From a virus: a DNA stretch of 64,000 bases. Shown piece by piece: positions 1 to 40,782 of this stretch. A model generated the notes under the pieces. The model did not search any database. It was not told the DNA's origin and was given only the letters and a program-made list of their open reading frames with translations. The translations under genes were made by a program, and so were the position numbers. The stretch lies in IMG/VR virus record IMGVR_UViG_3300045988_049479, positions 117,652-181,651 of that record, one strand, 5' to 3'. How positions within the stretch are numbered: the stretch's first letter is position 1; the number at the start of each line of letters is the position of its first letter.

Positions 1-757
1 ACCCAATGTCAGATTCTAATCCCTTAGAACAATCTGTGTATAATAAGTATAAACCATTTAAATTGATATCCTTTTTAGAGCCATTACCTAACTCAACATA
101 ATTATGAGAACACATTGTTCCTTCGCAAGCTATAGAGTTTATGCAGAGTAAATGGTCCACATATACATTCCACGACTCTAATTTAGACCCAGGTTCTGTT
201 ATCATATCATTAGTCTCTACGGTAATTATCTAGTTATTTGCGTCTATGATAGTTTTTAAAGTTTTCTAGTCTTTAGTAAACATAAACTAGTTTACAGGGG
301 TCTCCTATAATGTAGTTGCTAACTTAGACTTATCTCCAACCCAAGCTAGCTTTTGGTTTATTTGTTCAGCGGAGAAATTTAAATTTTTGTAATTTTCCAT
401 TTATTAGATTTTTAATATTGTAAAGTACAATACTTAACAATTTTAAATTATTTATTCACAAGTCCAAAATCTTTTTTGACTTTGTTTTTAATATCCATTA
501 ATTTAGTAAGATATTCTTGATAATCTGTTATGATAGAAGAATCTGTGCTAAGGTTTTTTGTATAACTATTATACGAGTTGATTAAATCAAATTCTTCATC
601 TATGGTTATAAAACTTCTAATAATAGCTCTTACGCAATCCTTATAATTAGGTTGCCCATTAAGTAAAACCTAGATGAAATTGTACTAAGTTTCAAATTTA
701 GTACTGTCTTTCTCATCTAGTATTTCAACTTCAGCCTCAACTTCTCTTATATCGTAA

Positions 758-2032
758 TTATAATAATAAGTACCGTTCCCAAGTTTTTGAATTACCTAAG
801 GACAAACGTTCATTTGTATTCTATTCGGTTCTAACATAAGGTGTTACTTTAAAATTTATAGGAAATTTGTATCTAAGCAAAGAATAATGTAATTTCTTAT
901 TCTTGCTTTTAAAATAATAGGGTTTGTTGTTATACATAAAGTGCACTCTGAAATGGCTATGATAATCAACCACCTCTATGATATGAATATACTTATTATA
1001 AAACTTAGATATATTGACTTCCTTTCCATTCCAATTTGAGAACTTCAAACCAGTCAAAGTTTCTATCTTTTTCAACAAATTCTTAGAATCACAGAATTTC
1101 ATCCAGCTGAAATAAGATCTCATTCTTCTTTCCAATTCTTCTTTATCAATCTTATTTTGCTTATATAGATTTATAAGCCTAAACATTCTCATTTTTATAG
1201 ATTTTCTTAATAGAACGTGAGTGTGATAAAATTTGTAACCTACAAAATCTACTCCTCTACTTTCTACTGGAAATATCTAGTAGTTAGGTTTTAATTCTAA
1301 ATTAAGAACTTGTTTCAAATACAGTTTTATAGATACTAATACATTTCTCAAATAATTCTTGTCATTACCAAGAATCACAATATCGTCAGCATATCGAAAG
1401 TAGTACTTACATTTTAACTCCTCTTTTATCCAGTGGTCAAAATATGTCAGATATAAATTTGCAAAGAACTATGATAGATAGTTTCCAATAGGAACTCCTT
1501 TGGCTGAATATATTATTTCCTTCAATAGACTTAACAGTTTCTTATCCTTTATTTTCTTCTACAACATCTCATACAGGATGTCATGTGTTATAGATGGATA
1601 AAATTTTCTTATATCCATTTTTAGGCAGTATTTAGTTTCATCTGAGTATTTCTACAATACCTTGAATAAATCATACTCTACCTTATGAATCCCTCTGTTT
1701 CTTATAGAGGAATATGTCTAATCTATAAAAATACTGGTCCAGATAGGTTCCATAATATTCATTATAGCATGATGAGTGATTCTATCAGGGTAATATGGAA
1801 GTCTAAAGATTAATCTTTCTTTAGGCTCATATATTATAAATGTACTATATTCAGAAGTCTAATAGATTAGCTATTTTAATTTGTCTGATAATTCCTTATT
1901 TTCTTCTAATCTATTCTTATCATGCTACTTAATACCACATCGAATTGATTTATTTCTTCTAGCCTTATCATCAGCTAATTCGATGTTTTTCAAATCATAC
2001 ACTCGTTCGTGCAAATATCCTACACGTTTCAA
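758..2032 (-). CDS. DGR-type reverse transcriptase, amber-recoded (about 10 in-frame TAG); start codon uncertain (TTG at 2032 or GTG at 2002)
   Basis: Manual minus-strand translation in a single frame from the TAA at 2036-2038 down to the TAA at 758-760. It contains an RLIFRLPYYPDRITHHA stretch, GVPIGNYLS[TAG]FFANLYLTYFD, FRYADDIVILG (YxDD) and a VDFVGYKF thumb motif. Tracker ORF 821..1192 is its C-terminal fragment; it stops at an in-frame TAG at 821-823 and the frame reads on. Confidence 0.8.
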
Positions 2033-2104
2033 TTTTTATATATTTCATCGGAAGCTTTCGAGATTTAACCTACTAACACCCTTCATTTAACACTACGTTG
2101 TCTT

Positions 2105-2119
2105 TTGCCTAGAGGCAAG
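2105..2119 (-). other. Small hairpin (ttgcc-tagag-ggcaa) between TR and RT
   Basis: Inverted repeat read directly from the sequence. Confidence 0.3.
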
Positions 2120-2173
2120 GATATTACTTAGCAAACTAAAAAAATAAAATAAATTGTTCTAAATATATAATAA

Positions 2174-2271
2174 CTCGACATTGGAATTGGCATTGCTGAC
2201 GTCATTGTTAGAATTGAAATAGCTGAGACCTGCATTGCTGCCATTATTCGCGTTGCTGCCTACTAGCAGTT
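2174..2271 (-). repeat. DGR template repeat (TR), non-coding, rich in AAT/AAC codons in the VR frame (ANNGSNAGLSYFNSNNDVSNANSNVE)
   Basis: Aligns base-for-base without indels to 2373-2470 (offset 199) and to plus-strand 28831-28923. Of 25 mismatches against VR1, 23 fall where TR has A on the minus strand. In the VR frame the TR contains stop codons, so it is not coding. Confidence 0.85.
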
Positions 2272-2345
2272 CTTTTTTGCCAATCAACGGTTTTTAGAAG
2301 TAATATCCTACGATTTATATCTAAATCGATTTTCTATATTTTATC

Positions 2346-3521
2346 TTAAGATACTCTATTTAGAGTCCTAAACCCGACATCGGAACCGGCAAGGCCGACG
2401 CCATAGTTAGAATAGAAACAGCCGAGACCCGCATCGCCGCCAAGCTTCGCGCAGCCGCCCACCCGCAGCGTGCGAAGCTCTGTAGAGGTAGCATTGCAAG
2501 AGTGGTAGTCACATATATAAGTTGTAGCTGAGGCTCCAGTACAAGAAGATGGTATAATCTCTGCTGTCTCTCCTAAGTCAAACTCTTTAATGTATCCATC
2601 TTGCGCTACCTCGTATCCTGCTATGGTCTTGCTGCCAATTACGTCAGTAAACTCTTCCTTGTTTGTGGTAGTATACACACTACTGATTTCATTTGCCGCA
2701 GTTCTTTGAATAACTACTCCATCTAGGTTTGTCCAAATATCTCCAAATGGATTATCAAAACCTCTCCATCTTGGAACTTTAAATGTCTTAGTCGCTACTG
2801 TATCTGTTTCGTTTGTTGCAGTACACTCTGGAATAACTAAATCTTTGATTCCAGTGAAGTTACCAATATCATTACAATAACCACATGGAGTAATAGGATA
2901 AGTTCCATTATATCCAGACCAACTTGTAGCAGAGTTACTCCAGTCTGTAACTCCAGGACCAAGTCCTCCTTGACGATAACCATCAGAAGTAAGTTCGGCA
3001 TTATAGGCAGCCTGGGAGTTAAAGTTAGCATATTCTATTACATAGTTCCAGTAGAATATCCATTTATAATATTCATAGCATAATAATTCAGAACCTGCAT
3101 TTGTAGCATAAGTTCTCATATTAGCTCTAGAAACATTAGTTCTAGGTTTTCCTAAATCGCTTCTAAAAGCATCTTTGGTATCAAGTTCAGTAGTTAGATA
3201 CTCATCGAATTGTGCTCTATTTCCACCACCTCTAAATGCTTCTGTAGTATTGACCACAGACACAGCTTTAGGGGTTGCTGACACAGTATTATCAACGGTA
3301 TTTCTATATGCGTCAATTAATAGTTCTGGTATTTCTACCCATGAATCATCAAGCTTTACTAGAGAAATTCTAACCCATCTTTTATTTCCATTAGAGCCTG
3401 ATTTACCATAAAATTTAGGAGTGTGGACTCTTACAGTTCCATCAGTTCCATCGAGCACAGAAGGAGTACTTCCATCTTCTTTGTAAGCCCAATCGTCCGG
3501 ATATAAATAGTAATTTACCAC
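2346..3521 (-). CDS. DGR target protein 1 (putative receptor-binding or tail-fibre protein with a C-terminal variable domain)
   Basis: Tracker ORF of 391 aa with a GTG start. It has no internal TAG although the flanking genes are TAG-rich. VR1 sits at its C-terminus. The frame stays open upstream through two TAGs to a TAA at 3729-3731, so the true start could be TTG at 3720-3722. Confidence 0.7.
   Translation of the reverse strand: MVNYYLYPDDWAYKEDGSTPSVLDGTDGTVRVHTPKFYGKSGSNGNKRWVRISLVKLDDSWVEIPELLIDAYRNTVDNTVSATPKAVSVVNTTEAFRGGGNRAQFDEYLTTELDTKDAFRSDLGKPRTNVSRANMRTYATNAGSELLCYEYYKWIFYWNYVIEYANFNSQAAYNAELTSDGYRQGGLGPGVTDWSNSATSWSGYNGTYPITPCGYCNDIGNFTGIKDLVIPECTATNETDTVATKTFKVPRWRGFDNPFGDIWTNLDGVVIQRTAANEISSVYTTTNKEEFTDVIGSKTIAGYEVAQDGYIKEFDLGETAEIIPSSCTGASATTYICDYHSCNATSTELRTLRVGGCAKLGGDAGLGCFYSNYGVGLAGSDVGFRTLNRVS
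2373..2470 (-). repeat. DGR variable repeat VR1 at the 3' end of the target gene; GC-rich; encodes ...RVGGCAKLGGDAGLGCFYSNYGVGLAGSDVGFR
   Basis: Differs from the TR almost only at TR adenines (A to G, T or C). The protein ends in a GFR motif typical of C-type-lectin-fold DGR targets. The TAA stop follows 27 nt downstream. Confidence 0.85.
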
Positions 3522-5192
3522 ACCGTTATTTGCTACACATCCTCTGTAAGCGGACTAAATAGGGAGGGATTTATGTAATAGTGGGTTTCCTATTCTAGTA
3601 AGGATAGGAGAAGATACGGTAATATCCCATTCTACTCCATAAGAGTATAAGTCTACGTTACTGCTTAACTCTGTGACTTGTTTGCTTAGACTCTATTGTT
3701 CTTTTTGTAATTCTTCCCAAGCAGTATTAAGAGCATTAAATTGTTCCTCTAACTTAGTACTAGTATCTGCCCACTATGCAGTCCCATCTTCAGAAAAGGT
3801 TAAAATCTATCCAAGTGCTCCTCCAGCAGGTATGTGTTTATTTCCAGAAGTAGTTGGGTGTACATAATTATTTGCATTATCTGCAATACCACTAAGTTTC
3901 TGTTTTTCAGTTTCTGTGTAATTAGCTTCAGAAAGTCCTTTTCCTAATTCTTTATCTACCTTACTTTCCAACTCCGTTTTAGTAGCTAAACCACTTATAT
4001 CCTAGTGTTCCTTTAAATAATTTTCATCATTCTATAACTAAGACACTTTAGTTGGAATGGCACTAGATTTTGCATATGTCTAATCTATAACATTTCCAGA
4101 GCCATCATAGGTAGCCTTTAAGTCATATACGGTTTCTCCAACCTTTATAGATTTGATAGCTGCCATATTATTGTATTATTAAAGTTTCTTCTTCTACATT
4201 ATGATCTATTCCTTCTATGGAGGCAGTTAAGTCTTCAACAGCTTTCTACAGTTCAGCCTTGGTAGCGTAGTTCTTTAATGTATCTGGGTCTATTCCAGAT
4301 CCTCCTATATTTCCTCCAACAACTTTTACTGGTTTTGCTGAGTTCTTAAACTACCCTTCAACCCAAATTGTTCCCATACTATTTAAAATATTAATTGTTC
4401 ATTTTCTCCATCTACCTGTACGTTACCAGAACCAGGCTATATTGCATCTATTTTCTTCTACAATTCGTCTACAGCAGCCTTTATTAATTCTTCCACCTCA
4501 GCTTTTGTATAGTAGCGTTCTGTCAGATATTCACTTCTGACATATCCTGTATCCTATATATCTTTTTCTCCATAAGTACAATAGTACGTATCGTTCTCTG
4601 TCTTATTATTTTCAACTAAGTCATCATAATCTGTTTGTGGAAGACATACCAATTTAGGAACCTCTTCTGTAAGAGCAACTTGCTTTCCAGATGCTAATAA
4701 TCTATTGTCTTCTGTAGTAAGTTTAACAGAACTTTCAATAGTCTGTTCAGTTGTTTCATCTTCTGAACTTTCTCCAGTTGTTCCCTATTGTACTTCTTTT
4801 TCGACAATTTTCTAAATAGTAATATCAGAAGTTTCTATAGAGGTTGATTTTAGAAGCTCTGTGCTAAATTCCTTAGAAGCGGCATCCTAATCTTCCTAAT
4901 ATTTCTTCTAGGTAACAAATATAAAATCGTCATCACCAGTTTCGGGAGAATCTCCTCTTAAACTTTCTTTTGTCACATACTCCTCTGCTATCTAATCGGA
5001 AAGGTCGGTTAATGACTATTGAGTGGCGTATGTAGATTGAGCATTTTCTTTTGTAAGAAACTTTTCATCTACCTACGAGCTAGTGTAGTATGCTTTAATA
5101 TCTTCTGTAGTAACGTAGCTTCCTAGTTTCTATAAACCAGAAACAATTTCATCAATCTATGTCTTTGAGTAATAATTAGTAGCAACCCAGGA

Positions 5193-6251
5193 CTAATACT
5201 GATGTGTAGTATGGTAATTTTGATCTAAGTACTCCTTAGTAATATAGACTTTAGCATCATTTGTTACATCATACACATAGTAATATGTGTCAGGTTCTAT
5301 AGCCTCATCTTCTACCAGTTTTAAATATTCCTCTTCAGTTAATGTAACCAGATTAGGAACATCTGACATCATGGCGAATTGGTCTTCTCCAACAAACAAT
5401 CCATCAGATTTAACATCTACTACTAGCTAATCCTTCCCTTCTACTACTGGAGACTTTATCTATCCTACAGTAATACTTTCTAGGGAACCATCTCCATCTA
5501 CCTTTAAAGTCTTATCTAGCTCATCTTGAATAGCCTATTGGTCTTCGTCATACTATTTCTTTGTAACAAAGACAAAATCATCTCCTTCCATTCCTTCTCC
5601 TCTAAGACTTTCTTTGGTAACAAATATGTCATCAGTTTCTTCCTTAGTATAATGGTTAGATAAGGCTTTAGATAACAAGGATTCTGGGTCCTCTAAATCT
5701 AGATCAGTTTTAGGGGCATAATTCTCAGTTAACTCTTCAAGAGTAGCATACTTGGAAAGGTTAGAGATTGTCTAGTCTAAATCCGTTCTAATCTGTACGA
5801 CAGTAGTATTTAGAGCTTTCTATTTCAACTATTCCTCTATCTTTTTACCCCATTCTGCTGATAAATAAAACTAATCATCATCTAGGCTGTCTTCATATAT
5901 ATAATAATATGTTTCTGCATGAAGATATGTTTTATTTTCGTCTATAGGTTTAAAATCTTCTGTGGTATTTTCAGACCATTCCTTATATTCAGCCTCTGTA
6001 CAGGTGATTATCTAAATAGATTCATAAGAAGCTTTCCAACCTTCTTTGTATTTAATCTTAGACTTATCTACTAGCATATAAATATTTCCGTTATCTATAT
6101 TTGAAACGGTCATGCCTTGATAAGCATATTTCTCCGGAATAGAATATAATTCGTCTAAATTATCGACTACTGTTCTATTATCAAGAGGTTTAGGAGTTTC
6201 TACGGTTAAAGCAACGCCTAATGTAGCATCACCTGTATATTTAAATGCCAT
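5193..6251 (-). CDS. Amber-recoded acidic structural protein; ATG at 6249-6251 overlaps the upstream stop as TAATG; 3' end not determined (frame continues below 5193 through TAG)
   Basis: Manual translation from 6251 down through tracker ORFs 6012..6251 and 5193..5399 stays in one frame, interrupted only by TAG (for example 6012, 5871, 5829, 5820, 5772, 5694, 5553, 5535, 5517, 5466, 5460, 5427, 5193). Confidence 0.5.
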
Positions 6252-7840
6252 TATTGTGATAAAGTAAAGTTAATTTGATGAGGCAATGCTGAAGAATAAG
6301 TATCCTTCTTAGTCCATACTTTATAAGGAAATCCATTTATCTATTCAGTAGAAGTTTCCCAGCCACTTAAATCAACATTTAGGTATCCTAGTCCTCCATC
6401 TACTGTAAATGAATTTAGCTAAGTATTACTTCCAGGTAATTTTATAATAGCCTTTCCACTTAATGAAAATGTAATAATTCCAGAAGATTGTCCAAATGGA
6501 ACAAGACTCTATTTGATTAAACTATCTGTATTACCAGAATACCAAGGGTAGGTAGCAGTCACCTATGCTGTAGTTGATATTGAACCAGCCTCCACCCTCT
6601 TGTCTGTAACCTCTCCCTTGTTGTTAATAAGATATTCTCCAGCAGCATAATTTACGGTACCAGAATGCACATAAACACCGATAGAATCATATGTTTCAGA
6701 TTCTACAGGAGAATCATTATAGGTAATAGTTTCTTCTCTACCAGTTTCCTCTCCAGCATCATTTTTTATAAATGTTAAAGTAGGGGTAAGTAAAGCGGAT
6801 CCTACCTCCACAATCTAAGAGGTGAAGCTATAATACAACTAAGGATAAACCAAATCTCTAACAACAGTAGGAAATAATAGAGTGTCTATAATCTCATTAA
6901 ACGGCTTTCCTTTCAATTTTTCAACTGTAGTTCCTTGAATAACAGTAGAAGTAGTATCATCTGGAAGTTCAGTTTGATAAGTAGCTATAGTTTCTAAACT
7001 TGTCTATATATTTGTGATATTCTCAGTATTAGAATCTACTTTAGAATCAGTGTTCTTCTAAGCTTCCTATACTCCCTTAACTTCTTCCTTTACCTCTGTT
7101 AGAGATGGTTCCAGGTCTTTTACATATATTCCAGGTAGAACTACTGTGGAAGGTTCTCCTTCCTCCTCTACTGGAGGAATTTCCTACTGAATCAGATGTA
7201 TTGCATTATCCTCCTACTAAGATAGAATTACTTCTAGAGTATTATCATCCTTTATTTCTATGGTTTTGGAGTTTCTTAGACTATTAGTTATCCAATTCTA
7301 GATGTTTTTGTCAACATCTATATTTTTGATAGACTCATTAATATCCTCTATTGCCTCATTAATCTAGGTTATTTTCTCAGAAAGATTGTTTATGCCAGTT
7401 CTGTTAGATTCAATTTCTTCTTCAAGTTCTTCCTTAAGTACAGTAATAGAAGTTCTGATATTACTTATATCAACTTTTATTTCCTCTATTTCTTCTGTAT
7501 TAGCTTCGTACTAACTTATAAAGAATAAAGCATAATCTAAGGCATCTTTTACAGTATTGATATTCTCTGCAACATCACTAGTATAAGTCCATTTCTATTC
7601 TATGTACTATACTAAATCTTTCTAGGCTTCTATAGTTCCTTCTATATTTCCCCAAAGAAGACTCTACTCATCAGCGATACCTAGATTCTTTCTAACCTTA
7701 GCTCTTTCTAATTCAGTTCTATATTCTCCAAGATAGTTGTTTCTTAGGAGAGGTATAGGTTCACTTTTTATTAAATGTCCTTTCTTTCCACAAGGCTTTA
7801 TATCAGCATTGCTTACCGAAGTATAAATAGGCTGTATCAT
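6251..7840 (-). CDS. Amber-recoded coiled-coil tail-fibre or needle-like structural protein (about 529 codons, about 20 in-frame TAG)
   Basis: Manual translation from ATG 7838-7840 to TAA 6251-6253 in one frame. The only internal stops are TAG. The frame is closed upstream by a TGA at 7847-7849. Heptad-like, E/K/I-rich sequence. Confidence 0.6.
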
Positions 7841-10800
7841 TATGATTCAATAATTGCTATTTAATAAATTCGTGATTATCTAATTTTACGGGTAGGTTAA
7901 TAAAACAAATTAGATTCAAAATATCCTAATAATCTGGTCTATATCCCTTTCTAACCCTTTTAAGGAAATCCTCATACCTTTTAATAGCCTTTCTTTTAAG
8001 AGCATCCACAACCTATACGTTTATGTTCATGGTGATTGTTACAGAATCCACCGCAAGTACGGAACATTGCTAACAATCTTTCAGCTTCCATGAATTGTTT
8101 AAAGCCTATTAAATAATCTATAATGTTAAGTGTCATCCAGATAAAATCTCTTGCAAATATATCTGCATCATGTTCTCTAGTTAGACACTTATTTAATAAA
8201 GAGTCAAAGAGTTTCTTACAGTAGTTAATATAACACTATTGCAGATTTCCTGTAAAGAATACATCTACCTTACATTTTTTGATAGTAGTTCCTTCTATAT
8301 TTCTCTCAAGGATTTCTTTTACAGTACATTCCTCTAGCTCTCCATCTACTTCTTTATATAGTTTCTCTCCATCAGTTATATAGATAGTTTCATAATACTC
8401 CTTGTATTCATCAGATGAATTTTCATACCATTTCATATTAGGAAGAATTATGTGGTCTACTACATAATATCCATCTTCTTTCACCTTAAATGTACAAGAG
8501 TCTAAATCCTCTGTATGGTCATTGAGAAGTACGTCTATCAAAGTAGCATCTCCTATACTAACTTTTATGATAGTATTTAGGGTAGCACTTTCACTATACT
8601 TATAAGAATCATAGGAAGTTACTACCTCTAAATCTTCATCAATATACTATCCATATTCCTTTGAAAAGTCTTCAATAGTTATTTCCCCGTTAATCTGGGT
8701 ATGTATATCAATACTAAATTCCATATTATAATAATTAAGACTCAGTAGTAGGCCATTGACCATATTGAGCAGGAGTAGAAAATGGTTTCCACTTACCTTC
8801 TTGTCGTATACGTCTAGACATAAAAACTGAACTAAATGATAAACTAATATCTTGAGGATAGTCTGTCCATGTATATGACTAACCTTCAGGAGTCGGTGGT
8901 AGACTATTTAATTTACCAGCTGGTTTCCCATTCCAATAATAATTATAGTCATATGCCTTAGTTGGAGTAACAGTCGTTGTTTCATGTCCTTCTGAATCTA
9001 CATATAGAGGATTTCCATCCTCATCTGTTTTCTGCTTATACTCAATAACTGGAGTTATTCCCTCAGTTCTAGTGTATATATTCTAGATAATAGTAGAAAC
9101 ATCGCTTGCCACAATCTCATAAATAGTAGTTCCCTGAGATTCGTCAGCTCCCTAGAAAGTAAATTTAGTTCTTTTCCAGATGTATGGATTCTCTTCAGTT
9201 GGAAGTTCAAAAGTATCAGTCCACTATTTAGTAGATAATTTTATCTCAGATTCTTCAGCAGTATCAGCAGGTAAGTAATGAATCTTAATAATAATATTAT
9301 TTACCGCTTCACTAGAACCAGAAAGATCTGACACCTATTTAAATAGTTTCTTTAAATCTTCTTCCACATTTGATTTGGAACCAGAAGCATTACTAATAAT
9401 TACTGAACCATCTGAAATAGGATAAATCTATTGCTAATCCTTATTATATACAATTGTTCCAGTTGCCATATTAATGTATTTGTCTTATTTTGTCATTATA
9501 TGGATTTCCATCATGAAGCTAAGCTAACTCTATTTCAGTTCTCTTTTCTTCTATATCCATTTGTCTATCTTTATATGTAGAATCAGATTGAGCTTTGAGC
9601 CAGTTAACTTTATATTCTAACTACATTTTCTGCTACTCTAATCCTAATCTCTATTCATCCAAACTTTCTATCTTCTACTAAGCTTTCTATAGTTCTTGCT
9701 GTAACTGCTGTGCCTATTGTGAAGTTTCTTCCAGTTTTTCCTATAGCTGCTATAGCTAATTGTTTTCTTCTTTACGAATCTATACTGCTTTCTTAACCTT
9801 ATATTTAAGGTCTGTAAGACTCTTAGCAGTTAGTGCTTCAAATATGATGTCAGGATCCATTTGCTGACTTTTAACAAACTCTGGAATAATGGCTTTAATA
9901 GTTTGTAAATCTTCCATTACTTCAGAGCTAGAAGTTATATGGATGTCATAATCAGTAACCGTAAAATATTCTGGAAGTGCTGTAAATATCTGCTAGTATT
10001 TATCTCCAAGTATAATAGTACCAGTCAATCCTTTCTTATATGTTATTTTAGCCTAGTTTAGACTATCCAATAATATCTCACAAGTGATTAGGTCCATCTA
10101 CTAGAAATAATGCTTGGTTACTATGTAAGAGTTAGTAACACCTTGCTTAATATTAGTTACAGCATCGTGAGTTTCTATTCCATTTAATCTTTCTCTAAAT
10201 ACTCCAGTTATAGATGATGTAGTTTGTTCTACTGATTGAATTGCTAATTCAATAGCCTATACAGCCTAAGCTTTTAAGGTATCATCAAATCCATTGTATA
10301 TCTAGTTAGGTGCTTGCGCTCCGTCATTTCTCTCTTCCTAAGTAGAATCAATCCACATGATACCACCCTTCTTGTATGCTAACCATTTCTACACTCTTTC
10401 TGGCCATTTTACGCCTAGGTTAGTAGGAAGCAATGACATATCCATGATTACTCCAGCAGTACCGCTGTTAGCTATCAGGTTATCCCTATAATAATTTAAC
10501 AAGTCATATCTATCCTGTAGATGTGCACACTTTAATATCAGAGAGTACGGTTGTTGAGAACGATTTAAGAAATATACCCCATTCACAGACAAAGAGCAGA
10601 AATTAGGATTATCTTTTGACCTCATAACAGTCTTGTCTAGACCTCTCAGAATATATATTTCTTCTCCAATTCTAATGGTATTGTATCTCTACATTACAAA
10701 ATCGTCATCAGTTTCTATCCACTCTACATCATAAACAGGAATTAACTAAAATCTATGAGCACTATATTCATTATCTGGATATCCAGGAATAGTTTCATGA

Positions 10801-11839
10801 TTCTAGTCTTCGTTTACTATAGTACAAGTGTCACCATAAACTCTTCTATAAACTGCAGCTGAATCATCGGCTCTCCATTCATCTTTTAGTCTTTTCAGAT
10901 CTTCTCTAGAGATTTCTTTTCCGTATTTAGCTAATATCTAGCTTTTACTCATCCATTTTCTAACTACTACTCTATACGAATTTCTAACATATGGAGATTC
11001 TGGATTCCTATCTACGAAAGTATTTAAAGGATTCAGAACTTCTATTTCTATGTTAGTTCCAGAAGATGATGATTTTACTCTGAAAAATGTATAGCCAGTA
11101 ATTAATAAATCTGTAAGTAACTATCGGAGTTTAGTTATTAAATCGGTTTCTCTAGACTGCATAATATAATGAATAATATTCTATGCAGCTATCTCATATT
11201 GAGAAATAAAAGACTAATCAATGTCTTGAATAATTTTATCTAACTAAGTCTTCACGGCTTTATCTGTAATATCTTTTCCGTCGATAAATTTCAGAATAGA
11301 ATTACTTAAATGGTCTCTAAGAAATTTAACTATTCCTTTAGTTATTTCTAACTATTTTTCTCTGGTGATATTACTAATGGTATCTGAATCCTTACAAGAA
11401 ATCTTCGGAAGGATAGGGGTTCCTAGATATTCCCCTACTAGAGCATCTACGTGCTTTTTTAGTAATGGTGTAAATTCTACAGAAGTAGGACTACCTATTC
11501 CAAAGTTTTCTTCCAGGTAACGAAACTATTCTGGGTCTCTCTTTCCGTTATAGTAATTATAGGCTTTCTATAATTCGTACTTATCATATACAAGCTCCGC
11601 AATAGCCTCGTTCGTCTTGTCTATCAGTTCTTTTTCTTTCATAACATAAATTATGCTGTTCTGGAGGAAGTTTAGTTGCATTATAGTATTTAACTCTTTG
11701 TAACTTCCTACTTCTTAATTCTTCCTTTATAAATGGGAGAAATTCTTCATCAGGTAAATCAGCTATAATGACTAAAGGCATCTCTGACCTATCAAAGTTA
11801 AACGATACCTTATAACCAACTGGATCTAGGTTCTGAATT

Positions 11840-14200
11840 TCAAGCCCACCTACGTATTCCATTTTGTACAAGTCTCTCATATAACCTAGGATCACTTGTT
11901 TCAATTCTGTATGGGTCATCGTATTCATTTTTTTGTATGTTAGTTTCAAAAGTCTTAGAAGTTGGTATAACCCCAAATCTTTTGATTCCTCTCTCGTCGT
12001 AATAATAACCATAATCTTGGAATTGTTCAACTTCTTTTTCAACAAGCACTGGCTATCTTCCTGACAATTCCTAGTCTGCCAATTCTGTCATTCCCACAGC
12101 TGCTACAATATCGAATTTACCTTTATTCTCATCATTATATCCAGTAAATTGGTCTAACATTTCTTCAAACCATATAGTATGACAGAAATCCTCAATAAAG
12201 GCTGCTGTCAAATCAGTATGTTGTTCTATAATAGTTTTGGTAGCGGGTGTTCCGTACTATTTAGTAGTTCCATTCTTGACGTCTGTTAGAGTAGCTCTAG
12301 GTCTTTTCATAAAGTAGTTTAAACAACCCTTTTCTCTAGCCCAGGTAATCATACCTACACGGGTAGCTTCTATGTTTATTCTACAATTATAGTATCTAGC
12401 TAAACACATAGCTATTTTATAGGCTTCTCTAATGTCATTAGGTCTGTCTTTATACATAGCAACATACTACGGTTCGTTTAGACCAAATGCTCTTCTTTTT
12501 ATAGTTATACAGAAATCAGAAGGATCTCTTGTTTCTTTTGAAGTTTGACTAGCTCCTATATCAATACCGTCTATTCCTGCAACATATAAATCATGCATTT
12601 CTTTGTACGCTGGAGATTCAAATTCTTCTCCCCTTTCCTCGGCTTCCTATCTAAGTTTATCCATCTACTCTTTATACAAATCAGACCATACAGGATGTTC
12701 AAGTATTTTTACTTTTCCGTTAATATTAGGAATCCATTTAAAACCATCTATATTATCCTAGGTGTGTTTATTATTTTTATAGAAATAGTCTATGTATCCA
12801 GATTCTGGTCTTGGTCCTATTTTCTTAAGTCTTATATTAGCTAACTGGTCCGCAATAAGAATCTTGTTGAACTTGTTAACACCTTCAAGATTAAATGCTT
12901 CTTCTGCATTCCAACATCGTTCAGCACACTTCTTTAGATAGTCATCTGGAACTGCTAATAAATTGTCGCGCTCTTCCTATAGATACTTCTTATATTCTAC
13001 TGTATTACATACACCTCTATGGTCCATGTATTCTGAATTTAGAGACTAGACAAAATATGGAATGAAGAACCCACTTTCAATAGTAGTCCCATCCTGGGTA
13101 TAATTATGTCTAAATGGAAGAACTTTGTAAGCTTTTGGATTATAATATATCTTCTTAAGACCTGCTAATGGAGCGCCCATATCACCACCAGTACCTCCAA
13201 ATAACATTGTTCCACGAGGTTTACCTTGAACTTCACAAAGCTCTTGTCCCTACACTACAGCAGTATCTAGTCCAGGCCAAGATCCTGCTTCATCATATAT
13301 TAATAAGTCAACACGGTCTCCACGAATATTAGATGCCTTAGCTCCGTTTATTCCAACTACTTCCGATTTAAATCCAACATCCTCAAACTGTCCGTTTACC
13401 TTAATCTGTTTACCGGACTTCTTTCTTAAGTCTTGGTCAATCAAACGTAGTTTGAAGAATCCTCCTCCTGTACAAGTATTCAAGAATGTTAAAGCATTAT
13501 CAAACTTACTAAAAGTACCTTTAAGGAAGGTATCATTAAAACAGGTAATCATTACTCTGCTTCTTCTGATTACTGAATACATTCTTGCAGATAAGGATGC
13601 ATTTATTTCAGAGAATCCAATAGAACGAGCTTTCATAAGAGCTGCGTGTTTATGCAGAACTCTAGCCATCTATAGATAATGAAAGAACATATAATGAGAT
13701 GCGAAAAATATAGGAAAGTCACTACTTGTTCCTTCTCCAGATGCCTTGTTATCATCAATAATAGGAAGCTAGTAGAAGTTTAGGAAGAAATAGTTATCTC
13801 CAGTAATTGTATAACCATTAACAGTCATTCCATATTTACATCTTCTATACTATTCCTTCCAAAACTCATTATATCTCTTACTATCTTTTAGATATGGACA
13901 ATACTTTCCAGTTTTTCTATATACTTCTCTGGTCTCAGTAAACCAATCTGGGTCGAAATCAAGACCATGTGTTTCATCTATTGGTCTATATCCAGTTATT
14001 TCATAAGATAAAGTAGGGTCAAATACCTCTATCTTATCTCCTCTTTTTACATCCCAATAATCAGCATTTTTGCCTCTTTCCTCTCTTATCTTCTATACTA
14101 GTTCTCTAGCTTCTTTGGCATCCTCTTTTTGTTCTTTCTCTCTTACCTAATCTACTATATTCTAGATTTCTTCAGGTAATATTTTTTTCTTTCTAGGCAT
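11840..14200 (-). CDS. terL: Terminase large subunit-like protein, amber-recoded (about 16 in-frame TAG)
   Basis: Tracker ORFs 13250..13669, 12257..12457 and 11840..12049 are all in the same frame (start mod 3 = 1). I checked 12050-13250 triplet by triplet and found only TAG, no TAA or TGA. An ATG at 14198-14200 begins MPRKKK... A Walker-B-like VDLLIYDEAGSWPG and a C-terminal nuclease-like segment are present. The gene ends on TGA at 11840. Confidence 0.5.
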
Positions 14201-15582
14201 AATTAAAAGTCTCCTGGGTCAAAGCCGTCTGTAGCTCCACCTCTTACAGTAGATTGTTCTGTAAGCTCTTTCTTAACCTGCTCTTCTAGTGTTACTAATT
14301 CTTCATGAACTTTATGAAGAGTAGCCATTTCTTTCATTACCTTTTCAGCTTGAAAGACGGGTTTGCCATTATTATCACGTTCATTTAAATCTACTATAGT
14401 ATCAAAATAATCAATAAACTAGTCAGCTGCTCTTTTAGCTGCTTCTAGAAGTTTTATTGATTTGTTAGAATCCTACAATGCTCGGTATTTTCTACAGGCT
14501 TCCCTGAATAACGGGTCATTAAATTCGGATTCAGATAGTCCAGAGTCACTAATAGCTTCATCATGTCTTTCATGTTCTGAATATTGGCTATAGGGACTCT
14601 TCCAATCAATAGCTAGATAAATGTAAGATAATTCTCTAGTTACTCGTTCCTTGTCAACAGATTTATCTCTCTGTATCAAAGCCTTAAACTCTTTAACTAG
14701 AAGAAGCTCTGGTTCATTTATTTCTAACTATTTAGTTAAAGTGTTATAATTAAATACATTCATACTCATCAATCATTAACATTAACATCTTTAATCTTTT
14801 TATTTCATTTTAGAACCGCATTTACTTACTTTCATTTTAGAACCACAAGCATCTTTCTTAGCATACTTTGTTCTATCTGGAACCCATTTTCCATTTTTAA
14901 AGTTTCCCTTGTGTCCTCTATTTGCCATGACCTCCTAGTCATTATATTTATTAATAGATACAGAATCTCTGGATGCTTCATCCTTTGCAGATTTCATATC
15001 CTTTTTATACTAAGCTCTTCCAGCCTTGAACTTGTCAACTTCATTAGCTTTCTTAGTAACCTTAGTTCCTTTCTATGCTTTTTGGCAAGCTTTGCAGATT
15101 CTTCCTCCCTGTTTAAAATAAACAAGTTCCTCTCCTTCTGGGCATACTCCTTTTAATTTTTTATAGTATTCTAGTTTAGCTCCAAGTCTAGCCATAACTC
15201 CGCCTTGCATCTTCTACATAAATTCTTGATACTTGGCTTTGATTCCATCTTCTCCAAGCTACTCAGCGTAAGCCTATAAATCTTGCTCTGATTGTAGTTG
15301 TATCCCTTGTGCTTGGGCATCTTGTATCAAGTATGCCATGAATGCTTTCTGTAATTCTTCCTAATTAGCCATTACTCTTCTACTTTAATTAAATCCTTTG
15401 TATTAAATACTGCTTCCTGCATTAATCCAGAATCAGTAAACCATCTACATCTTAGTCCTCGTAATCCTTGGTTATCTTTAAATAAAGCTGCTTCTCTTCT
15501 TAGAACAAGCATAACTGGAGAGTGCATTACTTTACACTACCGTAAAGTAACACAATCCCCAGGCTTAAAATAAACTTTTTCA

Positions 15583-19549: not shown

Positions 19550-19566
19550 AACTATTAATTTTGGCG

Positions 19567-19638
19567 TTGCCCTACTAGGATTCGAACCCAGACTAAATGA
19601 TTTAGAGTCATCTGTGCTGACCATTACACCATAGGGCA
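19567..19638 (-). tRNA. Amber suppressor tRNA-Gln(CUA)
   Basis: Minus-strand sequence tgcccta-tg-gtgtaatggtcagcac-a-gatga-CTCTAAA-tcatt-tagt-ctgggttcgaatcctag-tagggca-a. The 7 bp acceptor is perfect, the D and T arms are canonical, and the anticodon stem carries one G.U pair. Loop CTCTAAA gives anticodon CTA. The D-arm, variable loop and T-arm nearly match tRNA-Gln(TTG) at 34204-34275. Confidence 0.85.
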
Positions 19639-21957: not shown

Positions 21958-22026
21958 TCCCTACTAGTATAATGGATTGCGTCTCCTTTAAAGGAGAAGA
22001 TTCTGGTTCAAGTCCAGAGTAGGGAA
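21958..22026 (+). tRNA. tRNA-like gene (69 nt) with non-canonical anticodon arm (tctcc-TTTAAA-ggaga, 6-nt loop; anticodon would be UUA or UAA)
   Basis: Acceptor tccctac/gtaggga pairs perfectly. T-arm is tctgg-ttcaagt-ccaga. It lies inside a 1 kb ORF-free region. Confidence 0.35.
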
Positions 22027-22628
22027 CTACTAAGTTGCAGTATTCATATTATTGTCGGACCATAATGGGTATGCCCTGAGACTATGCAGTCGTTGTGAAA
22101 CAACTCAAAGTATTGTGGCACAGGAAGGTCTGGTCGTTACTCTTTGCTTATTTTATTAATTTCCATTTTGACTAAAAGGCACAGCGGTGCCTTTACTCTC
22201 AAGATAAGAACAACCTTTACGTGGTTTGAGAGATAAGTAAGCTGCTTTAGCTGAAACTAATAGTTCTAGTAACAATTAAAAATATTTACCATGAAAGAGA
22301 AAATGAAACGTATTGAGGAGTACACTAAAGCAATGAGAGAGCTACTAGATAGACTCTTGGAGCAAAACCCAGATTCAGAGAATGAAATCTATGATGAAAT
22401 ATGGGGAGCTTATGTTGCAGGCATGAAGGTGTTCTTATAACTCCTATTCTAGCTGAGAATTAAAACTAGCTGGCTTTTATCACTCTTTGTAAAAGCTCAA
22501 AAATTAAAAAGAGAAATCTAGAACGGTAAGCCCGGCTCTCTTCATCCTTTAACTGATTTAGAAGTAAAACAGAAATTAGTTGGCAGCCTGGAATAGACAG
22601 GTATTTTTAACTAAAAATTATAGAAAAA

Positions 22629-27416: not shown

Positions 27417-28378
27417 CACATTTTAATTAATTAGATTATGACAAAAGAAGAAGCAATTAGAGCTATGTCTGAAGGAAAGAAAGTAAGGCATAGATACTTT
27501 AGTAAAGACGAATGGGTAACTATAAATTCCAGCGGACTATATGAGTTCGAGGATGGTGTAAAAGTTGATTCATCGTTATTTTGGATGGACAGACAGGATT
27601 CCTACTGGAATGATGGATGGAGCTTAGTTTAACTTTAAATAAGAATAAAATGACAACGTATGAGTACGGAAAAGGATACTTGCCAGAAATCTGGTACTAG
27701 TGTAATATTCCAAAAAGAAATTACGCAGTGTAGGGAATGTCCTCATTGTAGAATCGCTCCTGACCCAGACCCTGATGACTGGTTCAATGACGATGATGAA
27801 AAAGCGCTTTGTAAAGAAGCAGGTAATAAACTAATTGAGGGAATGTTAAGACCTTACGAAAGGGTATTAATTCCGGATTGGTGTCCATTAAAAACTAATA
27901 AACAAAAATGAATAGAATTAAGACAAAAGCCTATCTTGAGGTAACTTTAGAGCAGGCACGCGAATGGTATGAAAGCGGTAATGAAGACTTGAAGAAATTA
28001 GCTCTTACTGCATTTAGTGAGGAAATGCTAATTCCTTCCTTTAAAGAGATAGTAGAGTCTGAAGAAGATTATGGTTTTTGGAATACATTAGTATGTCCTC
28101 CAAGCATGACAGAACAACTCAGTTCTCTAGCTAGTTTACAAATAGTTGCTAACTATCTAAATAAAGGATGGATCAAAACAGAAGGTAATACTGGCTATTT
28201 TCTTGGAAAAGGTTCTTCTCTGTCTGGAAAGACGGAAACTGATATAAAAGGAGTGTACGTCGCCATGCATCAAGATGTAAAGTATCCAGGTGTTGTTTAT
28301 TTCAGAACTGTAGCTGATGCACAGAAAGCAGTAAAGATTCTTGGTAAAAAGTTATTGCCATTACTTAAATAATTTGAT

Positions 28379-28482: not shown

Positions 28483-29043
28483 ATGAAAAAGACAATTGAA
28501 ATTGAATGTCCAGATGGTTATAAACCCATCTATAATGCCGAAACTGGCAATGTTGAAATCGTTCCAGAAAACATTATGGGACGGATAAGAACCTATGAGG
28601 ATGCTGTAAACTATCTAGGGTGTGTTACTAGAGATACTATTTACTATAATAGATCTGTAAATTCTCTAGCTAAGTTGCAGACAGTCTTGGATGCGCTAAA
28701 TGAAGGTCACAAGTTCAATCTGTTAACTGGTACTATATGGTATCCCTGGGTTCGCTTCTTTAGAATGAAATCAGTTCCGAAGGATGCAGAGGTCATTGGT
28801 CACTTCCGTTATCAGGGCGAGAAATTCGCGTTGGTGGGCGGCTACGCGGATCTTGGCGGCGGTGCGGGTCTCGGCTATTTCTTTTCTCACCTTGGCGTCG
28901 GCGATGCCGATTCCGGTGTCGGGATGCTAGCGTGCAAATCTGAAGAAATTGCAAAATATGTGTCAACTCAGTTTGGAAAGCTAGTGTTTGATGCTTGTTT
29001 TGCAAGACATTTTGAAGGTAGAGAATTTGAATGGCTTGACTAA
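28483..29043 (+). CDS. DGR target protein 2 (remote, opposite strand from the RT/TR); carries VR2 about 40 codons before its C-terminus
   Basis: Tracker ORF of 186 aa. The stretch ALVGGYADLGGGAGLGYFFSHLGVGDADSGVGM is encoded by the GC-rich 28831-28923. Confidence 0.7.
   Translation: MKKTIEIECPDGYKPIYNAETGNVEIVPENIMGRIRTYEDAVNYLGCVTRDTIYYNRSVNSLAKLQTVLDALNEGHKFNLLTGTIWYPWVRFFRMKSVPKDAEVIGHFRYQGEKFALVGGYADLGGGAGLGYFFSHLGVGDADSGVGMLACKSEEIAKYVSTQFGKLVFDACFARHFEGREFEWLD
28831..28923 (+). repeat. DGR variable repeat VR2
   Basis: A 31-codon gap-free alignment to the TR and VR1. Every mismatch against the TR inside the repeat falls at a TR adenine; one c-to-t lies at the 5' edge. Confidence 0.8.
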
Positions 29044-29522
29044 TGAAAAAGTTCCTTGTATTTATGCTTGCTATGCTCTGGATGAGCGTAGCAGCTTTTT
29101 CTCAGATAACTATATCACAAGAAGACTATGATAAGTTGCCAAGCGATACTAGAACTCAAATTGAGAAGATAACAACAGAGAAAGCTATAAAGGGTGAAAT
29201 CAAAGAAGTATCTGAATATGCAAGTCTCGGAAAAGAGATTGGAGTTGCAGTAAATGAGACACTAAAGGCAGTTGAAGATTCGGCTATAAGAATATCTGAA
29301 TCTAATCTAGGACAAACAGCGATAACTATTGTAGTATGGAAATTACTATATAAGGAGATAGCTGGAGTCGTAATAGGTATACTACTGTTAGGAATATCTC
29401 TATTTTTACTAATAACTGGAAGAGGAAAACTATCTAAAGACGATGAAGATGCTGGCGGATGGATAAGTGTAGTCGGTGGCGCAGTATTCTTTATTTCTTC
29501 TATGATTTGTGTATTTGGCTGA
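29043..29522 (+). CDS. Membrane protein (signal peptide plus C-terminal transmembrane helices)
   Basis: Tracker ORF of 159 aa. N-terminus MKKFLVFMLAMLWMSVAAFS. Its start overlaps the stop of target 2. Confidence 0.45.
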   Translation: MKKFLVFMLAMLWMSVAAFSQITISQEDYDKLPSDTRTQIEKITTEKAIKGEIKEVSEYASLGKEIGVAVNETLKAVEDSAIRISESNLGQTAITIVVWKLLYKEIAGVVIGILLLGISLFLLITGRGKLSKDDEDAGGWISVVGGAVFFISSMICVFG

Positions 29523-40696: not shown

Positions 40697-40782
40697 CGAC
40701 GAAACAAGGCTCCACAGCAGTTACAAGTTGTAACTGGTCTTATCTCCGAATAGCTAGTCTTACGGGGTGGAGAAGTAGTCAC

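Follow-up and report, generated by a model that had tools for sequence, protein, structure and literature searches.

Introduction

Most diversity-generating retroelements (DGRs), although not all, come with an accessory gene (Avd or HRDC), and the Bordetella system cannot do without Avd. DGRs that lack Avd form a recognised lineage (PMC7290462). In Bordetella, the layout of the DGR RNA holds the template in position, primes the synthesis of cDNA in cis, and brings the polymerase to a stop (Handa et al., bioRxiv 10.1101/2023.10.23.563531). Published work already covers DGRs in crAss-like phages (2020), reverse transcriptase (RT) genes with amber recoding in the Zeta group (2025), and remote non-structural targets (Quimbyvirus, 2021). 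In the part of the 2025 survey that is cited here, RT genes interrupted by amber codons are described in seven Zeta crAss-like phage genomes, while additional pairs of template repeat (TR) and variable repeat (VR) are reported in Lera and ct1yV3 only, both of which have AVD.

Against this background, we describe a locus in a 64,000-nucleotide stretch of viral DNA, the whole of which is referred to as the window. It is very probably an active or very recently active Avd-less DGR of a ~190-kb crAss-like gut phage in which TAG is recoded to Gln, with one template serving two targets. A sequence-only reading of this DNA had already described a complete DGR, comprising a TAG-recoded RT, a TR, a VR at the end of a putative receptor-binding gene, and no avd, and this central interpretation is supported. 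The cassette in itself adds little, as DGRs that retarget tail fibers are textbook knowledge and are catalogued in crAss-like phages, including amber-recoded ones. What is new here is VR2, in a second target, a 186-aa standard-code gene: besides the tail protein, a phage lineage that is very abundant in the gut hypermutates a small protein, the fold of which matches nothing solved.

Results and Discussion

The Phage and Its Genetic Code

The window contains 28 tRNAs, a CUA suppressor, and amber-recoded genes, as well as PHROG matches to terminase and portal. Its relatives at the DNA level are mostly crAss-like phages, the closest being cr7_1, a member of the Suoliviridae, and related contigs are 180–192 kb long. 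The phage probably belongs to the Crassvirales, and we infer that it falls in the "Zeta" group. The recoding itself is established from ORF statistics, from a Gln-like tRNA-CUA, and from the alignment of TAG codons with CAG, CAA, or GAG in relatives. The tRNA in question is as follows:

19566–19638, minus strand: suppressor tRNA with anticodon CUA (ARAGORN and Rfam tRNA matches)

Its closest resemblance is to the tRNA-Gln(UUG) that the phage itself encodes, and it is needed for the translation of both the RT and the first target protein.

The Template Repeat and the Tail Protein Target

The repeats of the cassette and the gene that contains the first variable copy are the following:

2172–2269, minus strand: TR, 98 nt, non-coding in function
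2371–2468, minus strand: variable repeat 1 (VR1), codons 567–599 of target 1
2346–4166, minus strand: target gene 1, a tail protein (putative fiber/receptor-binding protein), 606 aa with TAG read through

A repeat search recovers TR and VR1 as a single 98-nt direct repeat, 76% identical, with a start-to-start spacing of 199. The sequence-only reading also gave 199 nt as the spacing and put the length of the repeats at 96 nt, while placing them at 2174–2271 and 2373–2470, intervals that span 98 nt. On the minus strand, TR and VR1 differ at 24 positions, and at 22 of these the TR has adenine (A>G in 15 cases, A>T in 5, and A>C in 2); the remaining two mismatches are both T>G and each adjoin a mutated adenine. 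Given 30 adenines in the 98 nt of the TR, the binomial probability of at least 22 out of 24 mismatches falling on adenine is 6.8e-10. The adenine bias proposed earlier is thus borne out, although the tally of 25 mismatches with 23 at adenine was slightly off, as the intervals used there give 26 and 24.

The 30 adenines of the TR include those of 10 AAY codons in the VR frame, in agreement with the description of this repeat as rich in AAT and AAC. The same description had the TR containing stops in that frame, which is incorrect: there are none internally, and a 42-codon ORF spans the TR, which encodes the template peptide LLVGSNANNGSNAGLSYFNSNNDVSNANSNVE. Eighteen codons are variable, corresponding to about 10^16 possible proteins, and adenine changes in the TR cannot yield any stop codon. 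The GC content of VR1 is 64%, compared to 45% for the TR. The homology between TR and VR stops 2–4 nt past the last variable adenine, with no extended IMH evident, and its end has the form GTCG(G/A)G plus 2 nt, where G in the VR versus A in the TR is fixed in 54 of 54 VRs. A search downstream of VR1 and VR2 for a DNA hairpin or cruciform of the kind found in BPP-1 gave only stems of ~5 bp, with z-scores of −0.7 to −1.6, not beyond those of shuffled sequences.

Target 1 lies at the end of a TAG-recoded late module with terminase, portal, and tail genes. It contains eight in-frame TAG codons, read as Gln, and matches the PHROG "tail protein" family phrog_5302 (1.9e-83) over residues 136–602. That a VR lies at the 3′ end of a gene for a tail or receptor-binding protein is among the points borne out. 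The 391-aa ORF that had been taken for the target, however, comprises only what follows the final in-frame TAG, and VR1 is followed by seven further codons rather than forming the last 32. We note that an exact look-up of this 391-aa standard-code ORF returned no record, that a profile search of target 1 against the PDB gave no match, and that neither an FGE nor a lectin domain was found in it in Pfam or NCBIfam. For the C-terminal 321 aa, AlphaFold2 was given an alignment of 34 sequences, and the resulting model, with a pLDDT of 47.8, was not used; the C-type-lectin fold suggested in the sequence-only reading was not confirmed. Target 1 may act in receptor binding.

The Reverse Transcriptase

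The RT gene lies downstream of the TR:

758–2032, minus strand: DGR RT gene, from TTG at 2032 to TAA at 758, 424 codons

Nine in-frame TAG codons are read as Gln, among them the Q of PIGNYLSQ, and at these positions relatives have CAG, CAA, or GAG; the TTG start aligns with the ATG (MKRIG...) of relatives. Were the TAG at 821–823 a terminator, the protein would have a length of 403 aa. The protein carries PIGNYLSQ, a motif of the (I/L)GxxxSQ type, and YADD as its YxDD box, and matches Pfam RVT_1 (2e-18) and phrog_1423 (1.6e-112). Its best PDB match is the Bordetella phage bRT (8ub7, E = 7e-45, bRT residues 42–324), compared to 1e-15 for group II and retron RTs, such that the earlier assignment to the DGR type holds, with the protein at full length once TAG is read as Gln. 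Beyond the matched region there is an extra C-terminal extension of ~95 aa, with no relative in either the PDB or Pfam.

The family matches leave some room for an enzyme of the group II intron, retron, or defense type, in which case the adenine-biased repeats would be coincidental: the only NCBIfam matches are to group II RT/maturase, retron, and Drt3a families, all of them weak, and the RVT_1 core is common to all prokaryotic RTs. However, all three fall well short of the curated thresholds (112.7 against 300 bits for group II TIGR04416, 70 against 235 for the retron family, and 61 against 200 for Drt3a), so that the possibility of a group II or retron RT, raised in the sequence-only reading as one that would refute it, did not hold up. 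The bRT match is better by 30 orders of magnitude, and a scan of the window with Rfam, at gathering thresholds, detects neither a group II intron nor a retron RNA. In addition, the adenine bias is not confined to this locus: of the 74 related RT loci amenable to scanning, 71 have a VR-TR pair upstream of the RT with mostly adenine-specific mismatches. We consider the probability of an RT of one of these other types to be negligible. The readings of the locus as a group II intron, a retron, or a relic DGR were rejected on the score cut-offs, the bRT match, and the VR variation presented below.

In the window, which covers 64 kb of the ~190-kb genome, Avd was not found: no ORF fits the gap of ~100 nt between VR1 and TR, and the ORF at 448–837 has no Pfam or NCBIfam match. 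The absence of avd between VR and TR was thus described correctly, and no Avd-like ORF lies beside the parts either.

A Second, Remote Variable Repeat

An adenine-masked scan of the window recovers TR, VR1, and one additional copy, VR2, as the only copies of the repeat:

28483–29043, plus strand: target gene 2, encoding a 186-aa protein, without TAG, in a standard-code, tRNA-rich plus-strand block
28828–28925, plus strand: variable repeat 2 (VR2), codons 116–148 of target 2, with 38 codons beyond

VR2 is located 26.5 kb away from the TR, on the opposite strand, and is read in the same frame as VR1. It lies outside the coordinates to which the entry in the sequence-only reading referred. VR2 differs from the TR at 28 positions, 24 of which are adenines, and the other four are fixed differences at the repeat boundaries; at non-adenine positions, the window's copy agrees with the TR at 64 of 68.

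Target 2 is non-structural-looking. Within one 90% cluster there are 3514 distinct target 2 sequences, and variation in the protein alignment is confined to the VR positions, with 12 variable residues. The structure model is confident, with a pLDDT of 89, and a comparison of this model with solved structures yielded no match and no detectable lectin fold. The ORFs around the gene have no Pfam or NCBIfam match, and the neighbors are uninformative.

Variation Across Related Genomes

The comparison of related genomes was based on 61 IMG/VR loci on about 30 contigs, mostly from a single IMG/VR dataset (3300045988), and activity is inferred from differences between assembled genomes. Across 27 related contigs, the TR is almost invariant, with 1.5% of the adenine sites and 0.05% of the other sites varying. 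When compared to the TR, the 24 related VR1 copies differ at 72.5% of the adenine sites and at 0.74% of the others, and the 30 related VR2 copies differ at 74.1% of the adenine sites and elsewhere only at the fixed boundary positions. The copies of each repeat are all different, such that all 54 VR copies are unique, and their flanks are conserved. The divergence at VR adenine sites is close to the 75% expected under full randomization. Six adenine sites, however, are G in at least 90% of the VRs, which needs strong selection (Ser to Gly) as an explanation. In these assembled genomes, then, the variation has the pattern anticipated for a DGR, with a conserved TR and VRs randomized at adenine sites only.

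We also considered that the element could be a fossil, which once diversified VR1 and VR2 and is now dead, with the variation between genomes being old. In line with this, the exact VR2 protein variant of the window recurs on 13 contigs that derive from several metagenome records of the human gut, which indicates that homing is not frequent enough for every sampled population to differ. Metagenomes with this phage include ERR414372, ERR209570, ERR011296, and the NIEL14 samples. In addition, a few relatives have TR copies with VR-like changes (loci L016, L027, and L035), as if the constraint were relaxing, and the cited part of the 2025 survey describes some crAss-like groups in which only DGR fragments are kept. 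On the other hand, the RT of the window is full length and retains all catalytic motifs when TAG is read as Gln, and the TR and spacer RNA are nearly invariant over ~27 genomes while the adjoining RT coding sequence gains synonymous changes. The uniqueness of 54 out of 54 VR copies, with non-adenine sites untouched, would also be unexpected for old, drifting variation. We therefore regard a dead element as improbable, and favor one that is active or was so very recently.

A separate question is whether VR1 could be the sole true target, with VR2 merely resembling the TR, as a paralogous motif that the small-protein family has kept from its ancestor. Distant relatives of target 2 (25–45% identical) also bear a GGxAxxGxxxGLxxFxS...VG motif at the place of VR2, which makes this segment part of the family fold, and VR2 is internal rather than C-terminal, with its four fixed boundary differences from the TR. 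However, such a motif would not account for the near-complete agreement with the TR at non-adenine positions in the window, nor for 30 genomes that vary at 74% of the adenine sites and at no internal non-adenine site. Furthermore, there is a sister clade whose TR is different and whose remote VRs are present in target 2 homologues and in a paralogue. These small-protein VRs match that clade's own TR, which requires ongoing copying from the TR. A motif of this kind is thus more improbable still than a fossil element, and we treat VR2 as a second target of the same template.

RNA Elements Around the Template Repeat

The sequences flanking the TR contain the following elements:

2033–2171, minus strand: spacer (Sp), the proposed 3′ part of the DGR RNA, between TR and RT, 139 nt
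2298–2309, minus strand: upstream duplex strand AGGAUAUUACUU, forming a 12-bp perfect duplex with spacer positions 2118–2129 and thereby bracketing the TR
2105–2118, minus strand: stem-loop UUGCC-UCUA-GGCAA, in the spacer
2097–2105, minus strand: A-rich run, in the spacer
2050–2081, minus strand: second helix-hairpin element, in the spacer

The two strands of the upstream duplex are complementary at 12 out of 12 positions, a length reached in none of 1000 shuffles, and related DGRs have ~14 different duplex sequences with complementarity kept at the same position. The stem-loop and the A-rich run are present in 62 of the 74 related loci. For 23 diverse spacers, RNAalifold predicts a further helix of seven pairs, six of which show compensatory changes, and the conservation of the spacer exceeds that of the RT coding sequence that follows it. 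The global fold of the 316-nt RNA of the TR region is not more stable than those of shuffled sequences (z = +1.16); the support for the RNA thus comes from local covarying elements, and we limit our claims to these. Inspection by eye identified no TR:spacer template-primer duplex like that of BPP-1, and the AT-only inverted repeat 2033–2045/2161–2173 may be due to chance. By analogy, we propose that the 2298–2309 duplex could correspond to the "cPRT Stop" duplex that avd and Sp form in the DGR RNA of Bordetella. The conservation with covariation of the duplex, stem-loop, and A-rich run in a clade lacking Avd bears on how cDNA synthesis is primed and stopped without this protein.

Proposed Mechanism and Implications

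Taken together, these elements suggest the following scheme. The DGR RNA would begin ~40 nt upstream of the TR and run through it and the spacer of 139 nt, with the upstream segment pairing with the spacer over 12 bp, and with a short stem-loop and an adenosine run adjoining this duplex, in a layout like that of the Bordetella phage DGR RNA. Since the RT gene contains nine TAG codons, the enzyme would be made only once the amber-suppressor tRNA-Gln is active; as the RT and target 1 need amber suppression, unlike target 2, synthesis of the RT is probably restricted to the late phase of infection. The RT would then copy the TR into cDNA, misincorporating opposite adenines, and this cDNA would replace the homologous ~95 nt in VR1, at the C-terminal tip of the tail protein, and would also replace VR2 in trans, 26.5 kb away on the other strand. 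In this way, up to 18 codons (about 10^16 proteins) could be randomized without ever creating a stop codon. Priming in cis is suggested by the RNA layout; however, as no Avd was found here, and Avd is essential in the Bordetella system, the priming mechanism may also be different from that of Bordetella.

Homologues of target 2 are targeted in two or more DGR clades that differ in their templates, and the protein is conserved in synteny, which suggests a selected function beyond receptor binding. A more far-reaching interpretation, which we put forward tentatively and with some doubt, is that target 2 and its paralogues are an unrecognised class of DGR target: a small scaffold that is neither lectin nor Ig, outside the virion module and in standard code, which crAss-like phages diversify for a job other than adsorption. 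A single variable cassette would then be displayed on two unrelated scaffolds from one template, with an Avd-less RT with a conserved C-terminal extension using a Bordetella-like cis-priming RNA. An example of such a job would be to bind a variable host component of the defense or surface type, either within the infected cell or on it. With its 186 aa and confident model, target 2 is a tractable candidate. We note as well that both this RT and the remote target escape standard DGR finders, which look close to the RT and apply the standard code.

Comparison with Known Systems

When compared to the Bordetella phage BPP-1 DGR (bRT-Avd, Mtd), the locus has an RT that is homologous over the whole length of bRT, adenine-specific mutagenesis, and an AAY-rich template, and likewise a segment upstream of the TR that pairs with the spacer, with a short stem-loop and adenosines coming next, in the manner of the "cPRT Stop" (10.1101/2023.10.23.563531). 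It differs from BPP-1 in that no Avd was found, in the ~95-aa C-terminal extension of the RT, in having no evident extended IMH or convincing downstream hairpin, in having two targets, one of them remote, and in the recoded genetic code that the RT and target 1 use.

The DGR of crAssphage LMMB (PMC7290462), which is a relative of the window's RT at the DNA level (66% identity), has the same order of target gene, VR, TR, and RT at the end of the structural module and also lacks avd, with a lineage-3-like RT and a 3′ (IMH) region shorter than that of classical CLec3 VRs. LMMB itself, however, belongs to the Alpha crAss-like phages; its 98-kb genome follows the standard code and has no tRNAs, and there is a single target. 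The Zeta phages, of which 43 genomes are published, share with the phage described here, according to the cited part of the 2025 survey, contigs of ~180–190 kb with numerous tRNAs, among them a CUA suppressor, and with amber recoding, the order of tail-fiber gene with VR, TR, and RT, the absence of AVD in most genomes, and a GxxxSQ RT with a long, variable C-terminus. In contrast to the two targets found here, a single tail-fiber target is reported for those genomes, and that part of the survey mentions neither a remote VR in a 186-aa protein nor conserved spacer RNA elements.

Two-target DGRs have been described in other gut phages. The tentaclin systems (Int J Mol Sci 2023, PMC10743442) come from gut virome phages and likewise have one TR that serves two functionally different targets, but tentaclins consist of an N-terminal C-lectin domain followed by Ig domains, whereas target 2 is a 186-aa protein with no Ig domain and with its VR in the C-terminal half. 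The DGR of Quimbyvirus ("Quimbyviridae"; Benler et al. 2021, PMC8008677) also belongs to a gut Bacteroidetes phage and has two targets, one of which is beside the tail genes and the other distal, on the opposite strand, and presumably non-structural. Both of its targets are reported to be C-type-lectin proteins, with the second among defense-related genes, whereas the second target here is without a detectable lectin fold and has uninformative neighbors. Finally, the Quimbyvirus RT needs frameshifts, whereas that of the window needs amber suppression.

Template Repeat, VR1, and the Tail-Protein Target

A repeat search recovered one 98-nt direct repeat (2172–2269 and 2371–2468, 76% identity, start-to-start distance 199), bearing out the location at which a sequence-only reading had placed the repeats of a diversity-generating retroelement (DGR), at a length of 98 nt rather than the 96 nt proposed there. 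On the minus strand, the downstream copy (the template repeat, TR) and the upstream copy (the variable repeat VR1) differ at 24 positions, 22 of them TR adenines (15 A>G, 5 A>T, and 2 A>C; P = 6.8e-10 for at least 22 of 24 on A, given 30 A per 98 nt of TR), and the remaining two are T>G changes, each adjoining a mutated adenine. The adenine bias claimed earlier stands, while the accompanying count (25 mismatches, 23 at adenines) does not, as the coordinates used in that reading give 26, with 24 at adenines. The TR had also been said to contain stops in the VR frame, but it has none, since a 42-codon ORF spans it; its computed capacity is ∼10^16 proteins, with a stop codon unreachable in either genetic code. 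The VR1-bearing gene, earlier taken to be a 391-aa ORF, is replaced by a longer model:

2346–4166, minus strand: target 1, VR1-bearing gene, 606 aa, 8 in-frame TAG

Target 1, a tail protein (phrog_5302 "tail protein", 1.9e-83, residues 136–602), occupies the late module's distal end. Neither a model, with a pLDDT of 47.8, nor a profile search of target 1 against the PDB, which gave no match, confirmed a C-type-lectin tip; a 2025 survey of Zeta crAss-like phages assigns the tail-target tip a C-type-lectin domain, based on AlphaFold3 models.

A Second Variable Repeat in a Remote Small Protein

Scanning the whole window with the TR, its adenine positions masked, returned exactly three copies, namely the TR, VR1, and a third copy, VR2:

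28828–28925, plus strand: VR2, third repeat copy, in the same reading frame as VR1
28483–29043, plus strand: target 2, 186-aa ORF, VR2 as codons 116–148, no TAG

VR2 differs from the TR at 28 positions, 24 of them adenines; the remaining four lie at the repeat's two ends and are fixed. Target 2 is surrounded by tRNA genes in a standard-code block. In profile–profile comparison, the sole part common to both targets is a 39-column VR module (probability 96%), so that one variable cassette sits inside two otherwise unrelated proteins. Across 30 target-2 homologues, variation is confined to ∼12 VR positions, and the window's exact protein falls in a 90%-identity cluster of 3514 distinct members. 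The identical protein also occurs on 13 contigs drawn from several human-gut metagenome records, and homing is therefore not constant. We note that one homologue, P0065, has a 6-aa insertion (GGGAVR) at the VR start that resembles a partial duplication of the repeat 5′ end.

The order 83-aa ORF, 154-aa ORF, target 2, 159-aa membrane protein is shared by the related contigs that we examined. Just upstream of target 2, the 154-aa ORF (27908–28372, plus strand) has no VR; it shows weak paralogy to the target-2 family's N-terminal half (hhalign probability 87.6%). The downstream ORF (29043–29522, plus strand) overlaps the target-2 stop codon (ATGA), and shows by eye a signal-peptide-like hydrophobic start and a hydrophobic stretch near the C-terminus; nearly all of the related contigs examined have a homologue of it after target 2. 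The search for defence or anti-defence signatures was negative. Farther along the early standard-code block, the 652-aa product of 31031–32989 (plus strand) contains an SPFH/Band 7 domain (Pfam 2e-17).

Variation across Related Genomes

Searching IMG/VR with the adenine-masked 61-nt repeat core yielded 61 loci on ∼30 contigs of 94–270 kb, typically with one VR1+TR pair and one separate VR2. Relative to the window TR, the share of adenine sites that differ is 1.5% in other TRs (n = 27), 72.5% in VR1 (n = 24), and 74.1% in VR2 (n = 30). For the remaining sites it is 0.05% in the TRs and 0.74% in VR1, where 10 of the 12 non-adenine differences lie at a single T/G position near the 5′ boundary; VR2 shows no internal non-adenine difference. 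The 54 VR sequences are all distinct and their flanking DNA is conserved. Divergence at VR adenine sites is near the 75% expected under random replacement of each adenine, with a skewed substitution spectrum (69% A>G); at six adenine sites, 90% or more of the VRs carry G, through AGC(Ser)-to-GGC(Gly) and similar replacements that we attribute to selection on the scaffold. In three related loci (L016, L027, and L035), the TR copy carries VR-like substitutions over part of its length, keeping 24, 26, and 28 of 30 adenines; this could reflect gene conversion from VR to TR, homing into the TR, or chimeric assembly of repeats that lie 200 nt apart.

We fetched 80 loci with RTs 52–98% identical, of which 74 were scannable. 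A VR–TR pair with mostly adenine-specific mismatches lies upstream of the RT in 71 of these 74, with a TR-to-RT spacer of 96–176 nt, and the templates encode a similar peptide, LLVGSNANNGSNAGLSYFNSNN.VSNAN.NV. In one recoded locus (L114, RT ∼60% identical), a TGG (Trp) of the VR corresponds to an in-frame TAG in the TR, such that adenine mutagenesis of the template switches a codon between a reassigned stop and Trp.

For a sister clade that uses the standard code and has a different TR (RT 71% identical), a search with the clade's own adenine-masked TR gave remote VRs in target-2 homologues (60–65% identical) and in a second paralogue (∼41–44% identical). Genomes of this clade (L147, L156, L158, L159, and others) have up to three targets each, a tail protein and two paralogous small proteins with 64% and 44% identity to target 2, the latter two lying 4.8 kb apart in L147. 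Since these small-protein VRs match their own TR, small-protein VRs track the TR of their clade, which excludes VR2 being a mere family motif.

The Reverse Transcriptase and Its Genetic Code

758–2032, minus strand: reverse transcriptase (RT) gene, TTG at 2032 to TAA at 758, 424 aa with TAG as Gln
19566–19638, minus strand: tRNA with anticodon CUA (ARAGORN, Rfam), upstream of the recoded late genes

The RT matches Pfam RVT_1 (2e-18) and phrog_1423 (1.6e-112), and its best solved-structure match is the Bordetella phage DGR RT (bRT; 8ub7, E 7e-45, bRT residues 42–324). Group II and retron RT structures reach only ∼1e-15, NCBIfam scores fall far short of their cutoffs (group II, 112.7 versus 300; retron, 70 versus 235; Drt3a, 61 versus 200), and an intron or retron RNA was not detected by Rfam within the window. 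The bRT-like core is followed by a ∼95-aa C-terminal extension (residues ∼329–424; 758–1050, minus strand), kept in several crAss-like DGR clades and missing from 316–345-aa relatives, for which no PDB or Pfam relative was found. Its sequence runs NWNGKEVN...FRVHFMYNNKPYYFKSKNKKL...FPINFKV, and its final 21 codons come after a TAG, with an 80-nt overlap with the next ORF (448–837).

The window has a GC content of 35.7%. Removing TAG as a stop nearly doubles long-ORF length, mainly in the minus-strand block 1–15,400, which holds terminase, portal, and tail genes (PHROG) with up to 32 in-frame TAG per gene; plus-strand genes from ∼22 kb on mostly have none. From sequence, we conclude that TAG is read as Gln, because the CUA suppressor tRNA has its nearest relative within the window in the tRNA-Gln(UUG) of the phage itself, the RT's TAG positions correspond to CAG, CAA, or GAG in related genomes, and the Q of the RT motif PIGNYLSQ is encoded by one of the nine TAG codons. 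The TTG start of the RT aligns with the ATG of relatives starting MKRIG.

Several other RNA features were observed in the window. Of the 28 tRNA genes called by ARAGORN, 27 lie on the plus strand (21958–51772), among them a tRNA-Tyr with the unusual anticodon AUA (40615–40697, plus strand). A RAGATH-14 RNA (RF03145, 21725–21931, plus strand, 156.6 bits) is immediately followed by an odd tRNA-like gene (21958–22027, plus strand) to which ARAGORN assigns a two-base anticodon, "ta". An Rfam tmRNA match (RF00023, 44585–45161, plus strand; 63.1 bits against a gathering threshold of 47) spans 577 nt for a 374-position model, without an ARAGORN call, and could represent a tmRNA-like gene of the phage that carries an insertion.

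RNA Elements around the Template

The 139-nt spacer between TR and RT (2033–2171, minus strand) shows stronger conservation than the adjoining RT coding sequence on its 3′ side. A 12-nt segment at 2298–2309, 29–40 nt upstream of the TR, is the perfect complement of spacer positions 2118–2129, a duplex length equaled in 0 of 1000 shuffles. Two elements follow:

2105–2118, minus strand: stem-loop UUGCC-UCUA-GGCAA, directly 3′ of the spacer strand of the duplex
2097–2105, minus strand: A-rich run, after the stem-loop

The same stem-loop and A-run occur in 62 of the 74 related loci, where the segment just 5′ of the stem-loop complements a segment upstream of the locus's own TR. About 14 unrelated duplex sequences of 7–12 nt occupy this position, most with shuffle P ≤0.03, and one variant retains pairing through a G-U pair. 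Farther 3′, RNAalifold on 23 diverse spacers yields a helix enclosing a hairpin (window 2050–2081), with compensatory changes in 6 of 7 pairs. We also observed a 10-nt direct repeat, GTAGGATATT (minus strand), on both sides of the TR–spacer unit (2014–2023 and 2302–2311), and an AT-only 13-nt inverted repeat (2033–2045 and 2161–2173) connecting the 3′ flank of the TR with the stretch that immediately precedes the RT start.

This layout of duplex, stem-loop, and A-run matches that of the Bordetella DGR RNA, for which a cryo-EM study (10.1101/2023.10.23.563531) describes an 11-bp duplex between a TR-upstream segment and the spacer that, with a short stem-loop and two A-minor adenosines, forms a "cPRT Stop" required for cis-primed reverse transcription. 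The DGR survey in the same study covers DGRs with the accessory protein Avd, whereas the elements described here occur in a clade without detectable Avd.

Proposed Mechanism

Our analyses demonstrate the element's parts and its adenine specificity; they also show that TAG is recoded, that the TR is invariant and both VRs are hypervariable, and that the RNA elements covary. In the cycle that we propose, the TR-containing RNA would fold through the upstream:spacer duplex and stem-loop, and the RT would prime on this RNA, copy the TR, and misincorporate opposite adenines, after which the cDNA would replace VR1 in cis and VR2 in trans. Because its gene contains nine TAG codons, production of the RT would have to await active suppression late in infection; packaging of the newly made VR alleles would follow, and they would take effect in the next round of infection. 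TR–VR homology stops 2–4 nt past the last variable adenine, and DNA hairpins downstream of the VRs are unconvincing.

Comparison with Known Systems

DGRs of crAss-like phages with the order target–VR–TR–RT and no avd were described in 2020 (PMC7290462), and the 2025 Zeta crAss-like survey reports DGRs in 18 of 43 genomes, with RT genes amber-interrupted in seven. The Quimbyvirus DGR has a distal, opposite-strand, presumably non-structural second target (PMC8008677), and two-target DGRs with tentaclins are known (PMC10743442). In light of these systems, the DGR as first reported is not new in kind. In the literature examined, we found no remote small-protein DGR target in crAss-like phages, no account of such a target lacking a detectable lectin or Ig fold, and no cPRT-Stop-like RNA conserved in an Avd-less clade.
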